Origin: a virus
Reading direction: 5' to 3' (one strand)
Length of the DNA: 17,190 bases
Virus genome (UHGV): UHGV-0169021
Shown here: piece by piece, positions 2,603 through 10,709 of the stretch
Numbering within the stretch: the first letter of the stretch is position 1
Layout of the letters: each line of letters starts with the position of its first letter
Translations under genes and position numbers: made by a program
The notes under the pieces: model-generated
What the model saw: the letters and a program-made list of their open reading frames with translations, nothing else
The model's database searches: none
Told to the model about the DNA's origin: nothing

Positions 2603-2896
2603 TCAGTCATTACTGATAGCGCCATAGCGTGAGCGGTAATTACGCAGGCGCGGGTCAATTTCAGGGAAGTGGGTATATGTGGCTTTGCGGAATGGTCGGA
2701 TTGATGTCTGGTAAATTCGCTCGCGTTCTTCTTTCTCTGCAAGCCATATACAGTGGCGAAATTCCTTTTCCTCTTTCGTTTCCTGCGGTAGCGACATTAT
2801 CCGGTCGTAGTTTTTCCTGAATTTATCCAGCACCTCCGATACGGAATTGCCGGAACAGCGGCGCGCGTCATCCGCACCATACAGAGGCGCTGGCAT
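2603..2896 (-). CDS. Hypothetical early-region protein (97 aa)
   Basis: ATG at 2896..2894 with AAGGA upstream; basic and acidic mixed product, no family recognised. Confidence 0.5.
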
Positions 2897-2919
2897 AATG
2901 GAATCCTTATTTTGCTAAT

Positions 2920-3303
2920 TTAGAAGGGAATTGAATCGTCGTATTCAGGATGATTTTGATGATTGCTACTTTGTTGCTGTTGGCTGTTTCCTGAAGTTGC
3001 AAATCCAATCTTTGCATTCAGTAATTCAAGAGTGATTGATTGGCCATTTTGCCCCTGATAAACATCAACCCTGATGTTTTCTCCGGTAATTTCCACAATG
3101 CCACCTTCAACAAGAACACTACGGTAGTAATCCGCTTGCGCTCCCGGCTTGGCAAATACAACGGCGCTGTAGTTTGTCCATTCTTTCTTTTTTGTCTGGC
3201 GATCGTAATACTGAACGCCAGCACGGATGTTGAATCCGATATTTTCCCCGGCCTGAAACTCTCTTGCGGGTTTGTTTAGTCTTACAGTAATCGAATGTGC
3301 CAT
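2920..3303 (-). CDS. ssb: Phage single-stranded DNA-binding protein (short Ea10-like SSB)
   Basis: 127 aa with an OB-fold-like N-terminal part, a Gln/Ser-rich linker and the acidic SSB tail ...EYDDSIPF; ATG at 3303..3301 overlaps the erf stop (TAATG). Confidence 0.8.
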   Translation of the reverse strand: MAHSITVRLNKPAREFQAGENIGFNIRAGVQYYDRQTKKKEWTNYSAVVFAKPGAQADYYRSVLVEGGIVEITGENIRVDVYQGQNGQSITLELLNAKIGFATSGNSQQQQSSNHQNHPEYDDSIPF

Positions 3304-5266: not shown

Positions 5267-5375
5267 ATATCACCTCAAATAAGTGGTTTGCTGCCTAATT
5301 TCATTTTCTGTCGACCAACACAAGTCACACCCATTTCACTGCGTGGCTTGCGGTAGTAAATTCGGTTAGTTCAGA

Positions 5376-5402
5376 CAATAAAAAACCCACCGAAGTGGGC
5401 TA
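5376..5402 (-). terminator. Intrinsic terminator directly after the Nun-like gene
   Basis: Minus-strand RNA: GCCCAC-UUCG-GUGGGU followed by UUUUUUAUU; the stem begins within the TAG stop codon. Confidence 0.6.
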
Positions 5403-5732
5403 TGACCATTTTTTATTTGGATTTCGTTGGTGAGCATGATTAACAACTCTGTGCATTACATCCTCATATTTTTCATCTTCAATTTTTTCGACATCGCGAG
5501 GAAATGGTGTTGCTAATGCTTTGTCAACTTTATCCATTGGGTCTTCATTAATCTTATATTCAGGACCGTCATCTATAGCATTAAATCCAGGTGTTACACC
5601 GTTTTTTAATGCATATGCTATCCTCTTTTCCCATCTCGCTATTCTCCTCCTGTCTCGAGATGTAAGACCTCTATCAGATACTTTTCTGTTTTGTCCGCGG
5701 TCAGGATTAACATAAATAGTCTTTTTCACCAT
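5400..5732 (-). CDS. nun: Nun-like transcription-termination / phage-exclusion factor (HK022 Nun family)
   Basis: Arginine-rich motif RGLTSRDRRRIARWEKRIAYALK at residues 22-44 counted from MVKK..., three histidines (HRVVNHAH) and a penultimate Trp (..KKWS), matching the architecture I recall for HK022 Nun. The track start is TTG; ATGs at 5738 and 5732 lie 2 and 8 nt after the N stop. Confidence 0.7.
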   Translation of the reverse strand: MVKKTIYVNPDRGQNRKVSDRGLTSRDRRRIARWEKRIAYALKNGVTPGFNAIDDGPEYKINEDPMDKVDKALATPFPRDVEKIEDEKYEDVMHRVVNHAHQRNPNKKWS

Positions 5733-5740
5733 AAGCATAC

Positions 5741-6046
5741 TCAATAAGCACCGTACGGTAGTTTACTGTACAATTTTATTTTTTGGACTGCATGTATTTT
5801 GTTTCCTAATGGGTTTGAATCCTTGTAATAAATACTTCTATTTTTTCGAACGACTTCTTCTTTCTTCTTGCAGCAAAGGCTTCCTAGTGAAGCTGCTTTG
5901 TCTGCTCTGACGCAACCAGAGAGCTTTAGCGCAATTTTTCGCGCCAGTGCTTCATTACTGCGTCGCTCGGCAATAAGTTCTGCTCTGCGAGCTTTGTAGC
6001 GGCTTTTTGCCGTACCTTTGGATTCTTTCCAGACAATGGTTACCAT
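5741..6046 (-). CDS. N: Antitermination protein N, phi21-type arginine-rich motif
   Basis: Contains GTAKSRYKARRAELIAERR, matching my recollection of the phage 21 N ARM peptide; ATG at 6046..6044 preceded by AAGGAG; first gene downstream of PL and nutL. Confidence 0.8.
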   Translation of the reverse strand: MVTIVWKESKGTAKSRYKARRAELIAERRSNEALARKIALKLSGCVRADKAASLGSLCCKKKEEVVRKNRSIYYKDSNPLGNKIHAVQKIKLYSKLPYGAY

Positions 6047-6156
6047 GATGGTCTCCTTTAAGTGGCTTTGGCGCATGACGCGTCGAGGTGCTTATCTTCT
6101 CGATCGCTGTCTTGCAGCTGCAATTCGCGCCATCCCCAAAACCACTCAAGTTCTGG

Positions 6157-6196
6157 TCTCAACGGTTAGGTTGAGAGTCCGTCGATGTTAAAGAGC
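6157..6196 (-). promoter_or_regulatory. nutL: nutL (boxA plus boxB)
   Basis: Minus-strand boxA GCTCTTTAACA (6196..6186), then boxB hairpin UCUCAAC-CUAACC-GUUGAGA (6176..6157); same loop as the nutR boxB. Confidence 0.7.
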
Positions 6197-6242
6197 CTGC
6201 CAATCTGTTCCGTTTGGCTTCCAGCGTCCTGCTGATGGCTTA

Positions 6243-6296
6243 AATTTAAGACTTCTTAATTTATTGGTCAAGTGCATTTTTGAAGAAAACTTAATT
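6243..6296 (-). promoter_or_regulatory. PL promoter with OL operator(s)
   Basis: Minus strand TTGACC (6271..6266), 17-nt spacer, TAAATT (6248..6243); the 18-bp operator ATTTAAGACTTCTTAATT (6244..6261) shares half-sites with the OR sites; a second weaker site lies near 6279..6296. Confidence 0.55.
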
Positions 6297-6340
6297 TTAT
6301 GGGCGTGAATTTAGTTTGTCTTTGATTTTTAACGGGAAAT

Positions 6341-6360
6341 AAAAAAGGGGCGAAAGCCCC
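6341..6360 (-). terminator. Intrinsic terminator after the repressor gene
   Basis: Minus-strand RNA: GGGGC-UUUC-GCCCC followed by UUUUUUAUUU, immediately after the c2 TAA stop at 6363..6361. Confidence 0.6.
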
Positions 6361-7011
6361 TTAAGGAAGGTTTGCTAGCTTGGCATCAACGACAACGCCA
6401 ATGATTTTACAGTTCCCATTGATTTCAATCATTGGGTATTGTGGATTGAGTGGTTTCAGGAATTTTCTACCGGCATCAATAACTAACTTTTTGAATGTCG
6501 CCTCGTTTTCTCCTTCAAGTTTGGCGACTACCAGCTTTCCATTACGTGGTTCGACTTCTGGGTCGACGAGAATAATCATCCCCTCAGGAATACTCAGTCC
6601 TGCCGGGGCAGTCATTGAATCGCCTTTAACGTCGAGCCAAAAAGAGTCTTCAGAACAATCTACCGTTGTGTCGTACCAGTTATCTATTGCACGCCTATGA
6701 TATGGCTCTACAGCTTCCATCCAACATCCTGCGCTTACCCAACTAATTAGAGGATACGAACCTCTTGGATCATGCCTGCTGTGATAGGCAATGTTTGAAA
6801 GACTATCCTCTCCTTTCAACAGGTAATCAGGGGAGCACTGCAAAGCCTTGGCTAAGGCCAATAGGTTTTCGCCATTGGGCTCAGTTTCAGATCGCTCCCA
6901 TTGGGAAATAGCAACATTAGACACGCCAACCATCTTGCCAAGGGCAGCCTGCCTAATCTTGAGTTCTTTTCTGCGAGCGCGAATACGCTCACCCATCAGT
7001 TGTGTATTCAT
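6361..7011 (-). CDS. c2: CI-type repressor (P22 c2-like), HTH plus LexA-like S24 autopeptidase domain
   Basis: 216 aa; N-terminal HTH (...QAALGKMVGVSNVAISQWERSE...), C-terminal GDSM active-site serine region; matches my recollection of P22 c2. ATG at 7011..7009 abuts OR3. Confidence 0.9.
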   Translation of the reverse strand: MNTQLMGERIRARRKELKIRQAALGKMVGVSNVAISQWERSETEPNGENLLALAKALQCSPDYLLKGEDSLSNIAYHSRHDPRGSYPLISWVSAGCWMEAVEPYHRRAIDNWYDTTVDCSEDSFWLDVKGDSMTAPAGLSIPEGMIILVDPEVEPRNGKLVVAKLEGENEATFKKLVIDAGRKFLKPLNPQYPMIEINGNCKIIGVVVDAKLANLP

Positions 7012-7077
7012 AGTTAAGACATCTTAAATAAACTTGACTTAAGATTCCTTTGGTGGATAATTTAAGTGTTCTTTAAT
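7012..7077. promoter_or_regulatory. OR operators (three 18-bp sites about 24 bp apart) with PR and divergent PRM
   Basis: AGTTAAGACATCTTAAAT (7012..7029), weaker ACTTAAGATTCCTTTGGT (7036..7053), ATTTAAGTGTTCTTTAAT (7060..7077); PR is TTGACT (7034..7039), 17-nt spacer, ATAATT (7057..7062). Confidence 0.7.
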
Positions 7078-7091
7078 TTCGGAGCGAGTCT

Positions 7092-7277
7092 ATGTACAAA
7101 AAAGATGTTATTGACCACTTCGGAACCCAGCGTGCTGTTGCTAAAGCACTAGGCATTAGCGATGCAGCAGTCTCTCAGTGGAAAGAAGTTATCCCAGAGA
7201 AAGACGCCTATCGATTGGAAATCGTTACAGCTGGCGCCCTGAAGTATCAAGAAAGTGCTTACCGCCAAGCGGCATAA
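7092..7277 (+). CDS. cro: Cro repressor (P22-type)
   Basis: 61 aa, MYKKDVIDHFGTQRAVAKALGISDAAVSQWKE...; GGAG RBS; first gene of the PR operon. Confidence 0.85.
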   Translation: MYKKDVIDHFGTQRAVAKALGISDAAVSQWKEVIPEKDAYRLEIVTAGALKYQESAYRQAA

Positions 7278-7284
7278 GCAAATT

Positions 7285-7324
7285 GCTCTTTAACAGTTCT
7301 GGCCTTTCACCTCTAACCGGGTGA
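7285..7324 (+). promoter_or_regulatory. nutR: nutR (boxA plus boxB)
   Basis: boxA GCTCTTTAACA (7285..7295), then boxB hairpin UCACCU-CUAACC-GGGUGA (7307..7324). Confidence 0.7.
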
Positions 7325-7392
7325 GCAAACATCAGCGGCAAATCCATTGGGTGTGCCGCTATAACTCAATATCAATATAGGAAAATTAACAA

Positions 7393-7689
7393 ATGGCACA
7401 AGCAAGCTACAGCAAGCCAACACAGCGAGAAATTGATCGCGCTGAAACTGATTTACTCATCAACCTGTCAACGCTTACCCAGCGCGGTCTGGCAAAGATG
7501 ATTGGCTGTCATGAATCGAAGATAAGCAGAACGGACTGGAGATTTATTGCTTCGGTTCTGTGTGCTTTCGGAATGGCATCAGACATCAGTCCGATTAGCA
7601 GGGCTTTTAAGTATGCGCTTGATGGACTCACAAAGAAAAAATCCCCGGCTGCCACCGAGGATTCTGAGCAAATTGATATGCAATTCTGA
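7393..7689 (+). CDS. cII: CII-family transcriptional activator (P22 c1 / lambda cII type)
   Basis: 98 aa; C-terminus ...KKKSPAATEDSEQIDMQF parallels the lambda CII C-terminus (KKRPAATERSEQIQMEF) as I recall it. Confidence 0.85.
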   Translation: MAQASYSKPTQREIDRAETDLLINLSTLTQRGLAKMIGCHESKISRTDWRFIASVLCAFGMASDISPISRAFKYALDGLTKKKSPAATEDSEQIDMQF

Positions 7690-7721
7690 GGTAATTACTG
7701 GATCAATCCACAGGAGTAATT

Positions 7722-7868
7722 ATGACAAAACAACTCAGTCCTTACCAGGACAAAATTCACAAACACATACTACGTGATCGCTTCCTGTCCAGCTTCAAGC
7801 AGCCTGGTCGATTCCGGGCTGAGTTGGAAAAAGTGAAGCTGATGCAGAAGGAGAAAGGTCATGAGTAA
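7722..7868 (+). CDS. Small hypothetical protein (48 aa) between cII and the O-like gene
   Basis: Not in the ORF track. ATG at 7722 preceded by AGGAG at 5-nt spacing; its stop overlaps the O-like ATG. Confidence 0.35.
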
Positions 7869-8721
7869 TCTTGCAACCGTAACACATTTAAGGCCTTCAC
7901 AACGGCCTGTGGAGCGTCGTGTGGCAGAAGTTGAAGATGGTTATACCCGTCTTGCAAATGCCCTGTATGAAGAGCTTATCGGCGCAGATTTAACGAAAAA
8001 TCAGAGCAAGGTTGCCCACGCCATATGCCGTAAAACATACGGCTACGGTAAAAAGATGGATCGCATCTCTGATAGTCAGTTAGCTCAAATTACCAGGCTG
8101 CCAAGACAGAAGGTAAACAAGGCCAAGAATGAGCTTATCGCGATGAAGGTTATCCTTCGCGAAGGCCAGCAAATCGGGCCTAACAAGAACATCGAGGAAT
8201 GGCAAATCGAAGGGTGTCACTACTCTGGTGATAATGTCACTGCATTGGTGACAAAAAGTGTCACCAAAACGGTGACAGCGCTGTCACCAAAACAGGGACA
8301 CACAAAAGAAACTATTACAAAAGAAAAAAGAAATAATAAAAAAACTATGTCCGAAAGTGTTCGGACGGAGTGTGAAAAATCACCTGACCGTCACGAAGAA
8401 ACCGACAAGGCATTCGAGGAAATATTCTGGTGTGCAGGCTTGCGGAAAGCCGGGAAGAAAAACGCAGCTTCGGCATTCAGAACACAGTTCAGGGAATGGC
8501 GTAAAACTACCAGGGGGACGGCAAGCGAGTTTGCCACGATGCTGGCAGAAGACATCGTATGCAGGAATGGTAAGCAGTTCGGATTCGACAGGTTGTTACC
8601 ATCGAGCTACCTGAACGGTCAGCGCTGGAACGACGAGAAGCCAGAAACTATTCAACCACAATCCAAACCATCATCCGCAATCACCGTATCGAAAACTGGC
8701 TACGTGTTTTTCGACAGGTGA
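7861..8721 (+). CDS. O: Replication initiator protein, lambda O-like
   Basis: 286 aa; N-terminal region (...[25 protein letters not shown]...) resembles the O iteron-binding domain; origin iterons lie inside the gene. Confidence 0.8.
8215..8348 (+). repeat. Replication origin: four 19-bp dyad-symmetric iterons followed by an AT-rich tract
   Basis: Iterons at 8215, 8235, 8259 and 8282 (e.g. TGTCACCAAAACGGTGACA, TGTCACTGCATTGGTGACA), then an A-rich stretch 8301..8348; lambda-style ori embedded in the initiator gene. Confidence 0.7.
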
Positions 8722-8724
8722 ACC

Positions 8725-8832
8725 ATGAAATCAAAAATCAAATCGCTACTGGTCGCTGGTTATAACCACGGCTGGTTAAGTCTTTCGTTTGTCGATTTCT
8801 GGTTTAAAAATCTCAATCTGAGGGAATCATGA
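8725..8832 (+). CDS. Small hypothetical ORF (35 aa) between O-like and primase-helicase
   Basis: Not in the ORF track. ATG at 8725; its stop overlaps the primase-helicase ATG (ATGA). Weak RBS. Confidence 0.25.
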   Translation: MKSKIKSLLVAGYNHGWLSLSFVDFWFKNLNLRES

Positions 8833-10709
8833 CTCCAAGTGAACTCAGTGACCTGCTTTGGGCGCAGGTTGACAGGGTGGCTCCGCACCTGTTGCCAAAC
8901 GGCAAGAAAGAGGGGCATGAGTGGGTTGCTGGTAACGTCAACGGCGACAAGGGAAACAGCCTTAAGGTCAACCTTAGCGGCAAGAAAAAATGGGCTGATT
9001 TCGCTGAGGGAGACGGCGGTGACATGCTTGATTTGTGGATGGCATGTCGTGGAATTAACCTGCATCAGGCTATGCAGGAAGCGAAAGCCTTTCTCGGTAT
9101 CAAGGATGACGATCACCATTTCGATGCCAAACGTGAGAAGAAATTCTCCAGACCTGATCGCAAGAAAATCGCCCGCTACGTTACCAGAACAGAATCCCAT
9201 CTTGAGTACCTGCAATCGCGTGGCATATCGCCAGAAGTCGTAAAGCGCTACGAGGTTGTCAGCGGAAAGGTGTGGAATGGAGAACGAGAACTGGATGCTC
9301 TGGTGCTTCCGTACAAACGCGATGGTGAGTTGTTGCAGGTCAAGCGAATCAGCACTGAGCGCCCGGACGGGAAGAAAGTCATTATGGCAGAAGGTGATTG
9401 CGAACCTTGTCTGTTCGGATGGCAGGCTCTGGACGCTGGCGTGAGGGCGGTTGTACTTTGCGAAGGCGAAATTGATTGTATGAGCTATGCGCAATACGGC
9501 ATCTCGGCGTTATCCGTGCCGTTTGGTGGCGGGAAAGGCGCTAAGCAACAGTGGATTGAGTTTGAGTATCACAACCTCGACAGGTTTGAGGAAATATTCA
9601 TCTCGATGGACGTTGATGATGTTGGTCGTGAAGCCGCAAGGGAAATCGCAAGCCGACTCGGTGAACATCGTTGCCGTCTTGTTACTCTGCCGTACAAAGA
9701 CATCAACGAATGCCTGATGAAAGGTGTTACCGAGGATGAAATCTGGCAGTACATCGGCACGGCATCCTACTTCGATCCTGAAGAACTCTACAGTGCGCGA
9801 GAGTTTTACCAGGACACTATCAACGCTTTCTACGGCAAGCAGCAGTATCTGTTTAATCCACCGTGGGAATCTCTGGCAGATAAATTCCAGTTCCGTGAGG
9901 CAGAGTTGACGCTGGTCAATGGTGTGAACGGTCACGGAAAAACGGAGGTTGTCGGGCATATGGCACTTGAGGCAATGCGTCAGGGTGTGAAGACGTGCAT
10001 CGCGTCACTTGAGCTGAAGCCTGGTATTCTCCTTAAGCGCCTTACCCGTCAGGCGACGTGCTGCAAGATGCCGCCAGTGCTGGAAATTGACTCTGCATTT
10101 AAATTTTATGACGAAAGACTTTGGGTGTTTGGCCTGACCGGAACGGCGAAAGCCGACAGGCTGATCGAAATATTCGACTACGCTCGCCGCCGATACGGCA
10201 TCCAGTTATTCATCATCGACAGCCTGATGAAATGTGGCATAGGCGACGATGACTATAACGGGCAGAAGGCGTTTGTTGACTCGATTTGCGATTTCAAAAA
10301 CAAAACAAACTCCCACGTCATTCTCGTTACTCACTCGCGAAAAGGTGACAGCGAAGAAAAACCAACCGGGAAAATGGACGTAAAAGGCTCTGGAGCGATA
10401 ACAGACCTGACAGACAACCTTTTCATCATCTGGCGTAACAAGGCTCGCGAGAGAGCGTTACAGAGAGTTCAGAGTGGTGAAAAGATGTCAGAGAAGGACG
10501 AACAGCTACTGGCATCTCCGGCATCTGTTTTGATGCTTGAAAAACAACGTAACGGCGAAGGTTGGGAAGGTGGTGTCCCGTTGTTCCTTGACGAGCAATC
10601 GCACCAGTTCCTGCAACTTGAATCAGGATCGCCATATAGCTACATCGCCAATATGCCGAAATCGGAATATGACGAGGCGTGGCGACAGGAAAACGTGACG
10701 GAGTATTAA
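8829..10709 (+). CDS. Bifunctional DNA primase-helicase (degenerate zinc-finger region, Toprim, DnaB/RepA-like P-loop helicase)
   Basis: 626 aa; N-terminal W-DFA-G-GGD pattern without the cysteines; Toprim-like CEGEIDCMSYAQYG; Walker A LVNGVNGHGKT; Walker-B-like LFIIDSL. Confidence 0.8.
   Translation: MTPSELSDLLWAQVDRVAPHLLPNGKKEGHEWVAGNVNGDKGNSLKVNLSGKKKWADFAEGDGGDMLDLWMACRGINLHQAMQEAKAFLGIKDDDHHFDAKREKKFSRPDRKKIARYVTRTESHLEYLQSRGISPEVVKRYEVVSGKVWNGERELDALVLPYKRDGELLQVKRISTERPDGKKVIMAEGDCEPCLFGWQALDAGVRAVVLCEGEIDCMSYAQYGISALSVPFGGGKGAKQQWIEFEYHNLDRFEEIFISMDVDDVGREAAREIASRLGEHRCRLVTLPYKDINECLMKGVTEDEIWQYIGTASYFDPEELYSAREFYQDTINAFYGKQQYLFNPPWESLADKFQFREAELTLVNGVNGHGKTEVVGHMALEAMRQGVKTCIASLELKPGILLKRLTRQATCCKMPPVLEIDSAFKFYDERLWVFGLTGTAKADRLIEIFDYARRRYGIQLFIIDSLMKCGIGDDDYNGQKAFVDSICDFKNKTNSHVILVTHSRKGDSEEKPTGKMDVKGSGAITDLTDNLFIIWRNKARERALQRVQSGEKMSEKDEQLLASPASVLMLEKQRNGEGWEGGVPLFLDEQSHQFLQLESGSPYSYIANMPKSEYDEAWRQENVTEY

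Follow-up and report, generated by a model that had tools for sequence, protein, structure and literature searches.

The question raised by this locus is to which specificity class its antitermination system belongs, in a genome that encodes both an N antiterminator and a Nun protein of the HK022 type. The window, that is, the whole stretch of 17,190 nt of virus genome UHGV-0169021 that was analysed, is a mosaic lambdoid genome, and at most 68% of it is covered by any one phage or E. coli record. The 2.5-kb block from 5300 to 7800, which holds nun, N, nutL, cI, cro, nutR and cII, was 99.1% identical to phage mEp235 over its full length. The immunity part of the same block was 97.8% identical to phage 21, lambda imm21, lambda DE3 and HK629.

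Layout of the early region and the two nut sites

The gene order was canonical, with nutL located between pL and N and nutR between cro and tR1/cII, and the layout was the same as in the record of Escherichia phage 21 (OL657228). The features of the region were as follows, with window coordinates and strand.

5384-5401, minus strand: putative strong intrinsic terminator, a hairpin with a T-run directly after nun (consensus scan)
5400-5729, minus strand: nun, 109 aa from the GTG at 5729, predicted HK022-type transcription arrest factor with a lambda-boxB-specific arginine-rich motif (PDB 6ALG and 1HJI; PHROG 5632, E 1.8e-68)
5741-6046, minus strand: N antiterminator gene, 101 aa (arginine-rich motif compared with PDB 1NYB; PHROG 271, N-like, E 4.6e-31)
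6157-6176, minus strand: boxB of nutL, a 7-bp stem UCUCAAC/GUUGAGA with the hexaloop CUAACC (sequence and fold; stem_loop nutL in the phage 21 record, 100% identical)
6186-6196, minus strand: boxA of nutL, GCUCUUUAACA (exact match; boxA-L in the phage 21 record, 100% identical)
6243-6271, minus strand: pL early-left promoter, -35 TTGACC, 17-nt spacer and -10 TAAATT, inside the imm21 OL operator region (consensus scan; identical to phage 21 over the aligned pL-nutL region)
6361-7011, minus strand: cI repressor of immunity 21, with HTH_3 and Peptidase_S24 domains (Pfam; matches the repressor of phage 21, DE3 and mEp235)
7034-7061, plus strand: pR early-right promoter, TTGACT, 16-nt spacer and GATAAT (consensus scan, 10/12 positions; in the OR region of the phage 21 record)
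7092-7277, plus strand: cro (Pfam P22_Cro, E 5.7e-28)
7285-7295, plus strand: boxA of nutR, GCUCUUUAACA (exact match; boxA-R in the phage 21 record, 100% identical)
7306-7325, plus strand (7307-7324 without the wobble pair): boxB of nutR, stem (U)UCACCU/GGGUGA(G) with the hexaloop CUAACC at 7313-7318 (sequence and fold; stem_loop nutR in the phage 21 record, equivalent to 7307-7324, 100% identical)
7393-7689, plus strand: cII, the first gene downstream of nutR and tR1 (Pfam Phage_CII, E 8.6e-35)

The phage 21 record also marks OL1-OL3 and the start of pL, which mapped to position 6236 of the window, and its tR1 is the equivalent of 7372-7375. The listed open reading frame of nun reaches further upstream, to a TTG at 5744.

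The boxA 11-mer GCTCTTTAACA had two exact matches in the window, one at 6196-6186 on the minus strand and one at 7285-7295 on the plus strand. In nutL (6196-6157, minus strand), boxA was followed by a 9-nt spacer, TCTCAAC (6176-6170), CTAACC (6169-6164) and GTTGAGA (6163-6157). In nutR (7285-7325, plus strand), boxA was followed by an 11-nt spacer, TCACCT (7307-7312), CTAACC and GGGTGA (7319-7324), giving a stem of 6 bp, or of 7 bp when the U7306-G7325 wobble was counted. An earlier note on this DNA had described a boxA and an identical CUAACC loop on different stems at both sites, and this reading was correct to the base. Both stems also stood as it had drawn them, with one small correction at nutR, where the closing pair is a U-G wobble and the count of pairs can be given as 6 or 7.

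When one mismatch was tolerated in the boxA 11-mer, at least two matches were obtained in 18 of 200 shuffled sequences, and boxA alone is therefore weak evidence for a nut site. The composite pattern boxA-N(5-20)-CTAACC was found twice in the window and in none of the same number of shuffles (0 in 200/200). An identity between the boxA of E. coli and that of imm21 agrees with the rrn consensus UGCUCUUUAACAA. According to PMC3177189, lambda imm21 and E. coli have the same BoxA; a search of the text of that paper and of PMC2800207 for printed boxA sequences of E. coli and lambda found none.

As isolated RNAs, both hairpins were the predicted minimum-energy structures, with energies of -8.0 kcal/mol for nutL (z -7.4) and -7.6 kcal/mol for nutR (z -2.6), so that the folding proposed for them earlier was borne out at both sites. 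The two hairpins were also kept in the minimum-energy folds of their 56-nt contexts. The z-scores of these whole contexts were not significant (-0.24 and -0.40), as expected for hairpins of this small size. A search of the whole window against Rfam, which appears to hold no boxB or nut family, gave no match at the gathering threshold, and a search of 6000-7500 at E<=1 gave only a spurious match to the archaeal snoRNA sR44 (E 0.11).

The unremarkable context z-scores, the general abundance of short hairpins and the frequency of the one-mismatch boxA in shuffled DNA would all be compatible with a reading in which the hairpins are unrelated to N, being inverted repeats that arose by chance or else plain terminators or attenuators. 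However, the composite of boxA, spacer and CUAACC was absent from the shuffles. A terminator function was rejected for both nut hairpins because neither is followed by a T-run and neither was reported by the terminator scan.

Identity with phage 21 and survey of related loci

Alignment of about 75 nt around each nut site showed 100% identity among the window, phage 21 (OL657228) and mEp235, and over about 280 nt, running from the cI terminator past pL as far as nutL, the window differed from phage 21 by a single substitution. In the phage 21 record, boxA-L and the stem_loop nutL are annotated, as are boxA-R and the stem_loop nutR. After coordinate conversion (window position = phage 21 locus coordinate + 4271), these annotations corresponded to 6189-6196, 6157-6176, 7285-7292 and 7307-7324 of the window, respectively. 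Going by the title of Franklin 1985, the definition of the phage 21 nut sites dates from the 1980s. PMC12550061 names the "CUAACC hexaloop of phage φ21 boxB" and describes its fold as UMAC, GNRA-like and closed by a C-C pair.

The arginine-rich motif of N, ESKGTAKSRYKARRAELIAERR, was identical to PDB 1NYB chain A ("Probable regulatory protein N") at 22 of 22 residues. The 1NYB structure, from Cilley and Williamson 2003 as cited in PMC6061696, shows the N peptide of phage 21 in complex with its boxB RNA. Residues 1-57 of N were identical to phage 21 N, residue 58 was Cys in place of Arg, and the two proteins diverged from about residue 62, with an overall identity of about 80%. The part of N that contacts RNA polymerase is a variant, because the C-terminal third differs from that of phage 21 N. 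Other relatives of N were also observed in which the phage 21 motif is joined to other C-terminal tails.

The C-terminal third that is not phage 21 sequence, together with a genome backbone that is not that of phage 21, would leave room for a system of another N class (lambda, P22 or H-19B/933W type) in which the likeness of the sites to phage 21 is superficial. This is improbable to the point of being negligible, given that the boxB sequences and the N motif are identical to the boxB sequences and the N peptide of phage 21, respectively, and that no GNRA-like pentaloop boxB lies behind any boxA in the window. The lambda-type boxB GCCCTGAARAAGGGC had no match in the window with up to 3 mismatches, and of the 10 GNRNA-pentaloop hairpins in the window none was preceded by a boxA; a lambda-class or P22-class boxB was rejected on these results. 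Likewise, the window contained no 5-bp GC-rich stem with a GAAAA or GAAGA pentaloop after a boxA.

The assignment to phage 21 could be followed across related loci. A scan of IMG/VR with the N protein yielded 80 loci, in order of similarity to this N. Among them, 75 N proteins had the phage 21 motif (one with a single T-to-A substitution). The phage 21 nutL boxB was located upstream of N in 75/75 of the loci with this motif and the phage 21 nutR boxB was present in 73/75, while in the other two no nutR was detected on the locus. Two further loci (L075 and L076) encoded an N with homologous central and C-terminal parts and a different motif, NARNRRRARRQAQREQ. In both nutL and nutR of these two loci, boxA was unchanged and boxB was replaced by UCCCGC-CGAAAU-GCGGGA. 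Judged from sequence, this joint exchange of the N motif and both boxB elements is as expected if the motif and the boxB loop form a specificity pair.

Among the related loci and viral contigs, the sites of the phage 21 class were nearly invariant. The variants of boxB comprised the loop CUAACA (8 nutR copies), the loop CUAAUC (one copy), a closing pair changed from U-G to U-A (one copy) and a closing pair changed from C-G to C-A (one nutL copy). A nutR family with the sequence GCUCACCU-CUAACC-GGGUAAGC was also found, in which one internal pair has become C·A and two new outer pairs, C-G and G-C, are present. A scan of viral contigs for boxA-N(14-24)-CTAACC, aimed at new stem variants, returned the same two stem families and minor variants. 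The remaining boxA+CTAACC matches in the viral contigs were rejected as boxB, with flanking complementarity of just 0-3 bp, and were regarded as chance or rrn-leader-like matches; the presence of stems therefore sets these nut sites apart.

This lack of flanking stems outside the phage group, the identity with the annotated phage 21 nut sites and the strict co-occurrence with the phage 21 N motif also bear on the reading of the hairpins as chance repeats or terminators unrelated to N, and with them that reading becomes very improbable.

When the stems of nutL and nutR were aligned from the loop outward, 5 of 7 pairs differed on both sides and the other 2 on one side. Over 9 distinct natural variants, the 7-bp helix was paired in 95% of cells, compared with 16-54% when the partner columns were slid. 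The earlier note had taken the difference between the stems as covariation consistent with a conserved RNA structure. Pairing was indeed kept with most of the pairs changed on both sides, with the caveat that the signal is essentially one divergence between nutL and nutR and not many independent substitutions. Proof of the structure comes from the published NMR complex and not from the statistics given here, because the orthologous copies in other phages are almost invariant.

Each of the two sites thus has an rrn-like boxA 5' of a hairpin, a CUAACC boxB, a location in an early transcript, a cognate N motif and identity with the reference, as in a nut site of the phage 21 class. We conclude that they are almost certainly the nutL and nutR of an immunity-21 lambdoid phage, and that a phage 21-type N and nut system is carried in an mEp235-like mosaic genome. 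The phi21 specificity class proposed earlier is supported by the complete identity of the sites, the nut annotations of phage 21 and the match of the N motif to 1NYB; in the comparison with published phi21 nut sites that had been suggested as a check, the sites were identical base for base and the published loop CUAACC agreed. The mosaicism of the genome leaves the nut module untouched.

Proposed action of N and specificity of Nun

Given the location, sequence and folding of the sites, their match to phage 21 and the identities of the N and Nun motifs, we infer the binding events and the antitermination, on the basis of lambdoid N antitermination as summarised in PMC5386594 and PMC3177189. The transcripts from pL and pR would carry the linear boxA and, about 10 nt further on, the boxB hairpin, whose CUAACC hexaloop would be the specificity element. 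By analogy with other lambdoid phages, boxB would be bound by the arginine-rich helix at the N terminus of the N that this phage encodes, and boxA by the host NusB-NusE (S10). The complex of RNA, N and Nus proteins, with NusA and NusG, would then stay tethered to the elongating RNA polymerase, which would become resistant to downstream terminators, on the left arm beyond nun and on the right arm at tR1 and later. Since lambda boxB carries a GNRA-like pentaloop and not this hexaloop, the system is predicted to be orthogonal to lambda N.

Orthogonality is likewise expected towards the HK022-type Nun encoded in the same genome, as its motif is specific for lambda boxB. Nun was identical to HK022 Nun (PDB 6ALG chain N) at 108 of 109 residues, including the C-terminus ...NPNKKWS, and its arginine-rich motif, DRGLTSRDRRRIARWEKRIAYALKNG, was identical to the peptide of PDB 1HJI chain B. 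With both the arginine-rich motif and the C-terminal RNA polymerase-arrest segment present, the protein is predicted to be an HK022 Nun arrest factor. Lambda hybrids with the nut regions of phage 21 or P22 are said to escape Nun, reportedly as found by Robert et al. in 1987. According to its citation in PMC5386594, 1HJI is the complex of HK022 Nun with lambda boxB RNA (Faber et al. 2001), and Nun is localised to lambda transcripts, its specificity coming from binding of the lambda boxB hairpin (PMC5386594).

We weighed whether the sites could nevertheless also be targets of the co-resident Nun, through self-regulation or cross-reaction, in which case Nun would not be orthogonal to these nut sites. 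The nun gene lies on the same pL transcript, directly after N, and Nus factors stimulate Nun via boxA (PMC5386594), which is of strong consensus here (PMC3177189). For a non-specific elongation complex, PMC5386594 gives a Kd of about 300 nM, which makes some boxB-independent activity possible. Against these points, the motif of this Nun is the peptide that was solved on lambda boxB, no lambda-type boxB is present in the window, and the CUAACC hexaloop is unlike the GAAAA/GAAGA pentaloop of lambda not only in sequence but also in size. Moreover, the N-nun arrangement, which was found in 62 of the 80 related loci (a set ranked by similarity to this N and hence biased), would be difficult to maintain in a phage whose own transcription was arrested by Nun. 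Targeting of these sites by Nun is consequently regarded as very unlikely. The orthogonal reading agrees with the claim of the earlier note that the N/nut class is distinct from the lambda-type target expected for the Nun-like protein, a claim that is supported by the identity of the Nun motif with the 1HJI peptide and by the absence of lambda-type boxB from the window. A phage 21-type class would explain how a lambda-directed Nun exclusion factor can be encoded beside N without conflict.

It was observed that HK022, which is without N, still has ~115 nt from the 3' end of precisely this variant of N ahead of its nun (~97% identical; window 5858-5741). A promoter of HK022, P_Nun, is located just upstream of nun, reportedly according to King et al. 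in 2000. No paper that discusses the pairing of N with nun came up in full-text searches of the literature for mEp235 and Nun. We tentatively suggest, as a possibility rather than as the likelier outcome, that hexaloop nut sites may let a phage carry Nun in cis without self-arrest and, at the same time, that HK022 may derive from a phage with a 21-type N followed by nun. If both were true, the N-nun arrangement would be the ancestral and common state and HK022 would be the exception.

Comparison with known systems

The nut sites of the window are already known; the system is a textbook one in every testable respect, and its exact sequences are already annotated publicly. GenBank carries the same nut sequence with annotation, both under phage 21 and, in the form of imm21, under lambda DE3 of BL21(DE3). 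The value of the present result is one of annotation, in that it fixes the antitermination specificity class of a mosaic prophage, and it has little importance as a discovery.

In common with lambda nutL and nutR, lambda N and HK022 Nun, the system has boxA, spacer and boxB in the transcripts from pL and pR, with boxB as the binding site of an arginine-rich motif and boxA as that of Nus factors (PMC5386594). Unlike the lambda boxB, which has a 5-bp stem and a GNRA-like pentaloop, boxB here has a stem of 6-7 bp and the hexaloop CUAACC. The boxA here is of the E. coli rrn type, whereas the boxA of lambda is weaker (PMC3177189).

Phage mEp235 (JQ182731 / NC_019708) shares the 2.5-kb block, and its record annotates N, Nun and "putative Nut boxA" sites. 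The record marks boxA only and leaves the boxB hairpins unmarked, and the O and primase-helicase genes of the window are of another type than those of mEp235, being closest to mEp043/Sf101. Phage Kapi1 showed 98.8% identity to the 2.5-kb nun-cII block, with 95% of the block covered.

Phage 21, and also lambda imm21, lambda DE3 and HK629, have the same boxA, spacer, boxB stem and CUAACC hexaloop, the same placement relative to pL/N and cro/cII, and the same N motif. In contrast to phage 21, the C-terminal third of N is divergent here, and nun follows N here while phage 21 has none. The replication and nin regions also differ from those of phage 21 and come from other lambdoid phages.

Motif of N and its predicted boxB target

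Two of the viral loci, L075 and L076, encoded N proteins with another arginine-rich motif:

L075 (IMGVR_UViG_2913182230_000001), about 2740-3210: N with the other motif
L076 (IMGVR_UViG_2917855067_000001), about 2740-3210: N with the other motif

In both proteins, the centre and C-terminus were homologous, while the arginine-rich motif was different (MTVVITYLADDNARNRRRARRQAQREQ...). The boxB of these loci was changed to UCCCGC-CGAAAU-GCGGGA at nutL and nutR alike, and boxA was kept. L075 and L076 show a natural co-swap, in which motif and boxB were exchanged together. The arginine-rich motif of these two loci was also found in phages HK140, CUS-3, N7, IME10 and JEP4.

In the N ORFs of loci L066-L074, L077-L082 and L072/L078, the phage 21 motif and centre were joined to a different C-terminal tail (...CLPNVA[IL]YAAGYRKSKQLTAR). 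This tail resembles the C-terminus of N from H-19B/933W-type Stx phages. Such joining marks N as itself an apparent mosaic, with its predicted RNA-binding and RNA polymerase-binding parts swapped independently.

A nutR variant, GCUCACCU-CUAACC-GGGUAAGC, was observed in L085, L090, L099, L109, L135 and others. The fourth pair from the stem base was lost to a mismatch, C·A or, in two loci, A·A, and the two outermost positions were changed from U/UU to GC, which added two G-C pairs. Compensation here appears to come from extension of the stem and not from restoration of the pair. One further element was located downstream of the nutR boxB of the window:

7335-7361, + strand: inverted repeat GCGGCA...TGCCGC enclosing GGGTGTGC

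The repeat sits just ahead of the tR1 position marked in the phage 21 record. The element resembles the lambda boxC motif (GGUGUGUG).

The 3' end of N and expression of nun

Among lambdoid phages, HK022 is the classic one that lacks N. Upstream of its nun, it has the final ~115 nt of the exact N variant of the window, with about 97% identity:

Window 5741-5858, - strand, and HK022 (L203, AF069308) about 3060-3180, - strand: 3' end of N shared by sequence homology
Window 5384-5401, - strand: strong intrinsic-terminator-like hairpin and T-run directly after nun
Window 6345-6362, - strand: strong intrinsic-terminator-like hairpin and T-run directly after cI

The homology between HK022 and the window ended abruptly within N. 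The shared 3' end and this break suggest that the 3' end of N, nun and the terminator form a mobile module and that an N-nun phage was the ancestor of HK022.

The hairpin after cI was identical in phage 21, whose record annotates a terminator there. This hairpin would halt pRM transcripts ahead of pL, and nun in a lysogen would therefore require its own promoter. HK022 has a constitutive promoter, P_Nun, reported to lie within the N 3'-end stretch shared with the window (King et al. 2000); thus, in lysogens of the window phage, nun may be expressed from inside the N gene.

Replication module and related phages

At most 68% of the window was covered by any one phage or E. coli record. The replication module was as follows:

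7861-10709, + strand: O-like initiator (Phage_rep_O), then a 626-aa Toprim/DnaB-like primase-helicase fusion

This module differs from those of mEp235 and phage 21, which carry O plus a DnaB-helicase and O/P, respectively, and is closest to that of mEp043/Sf101.
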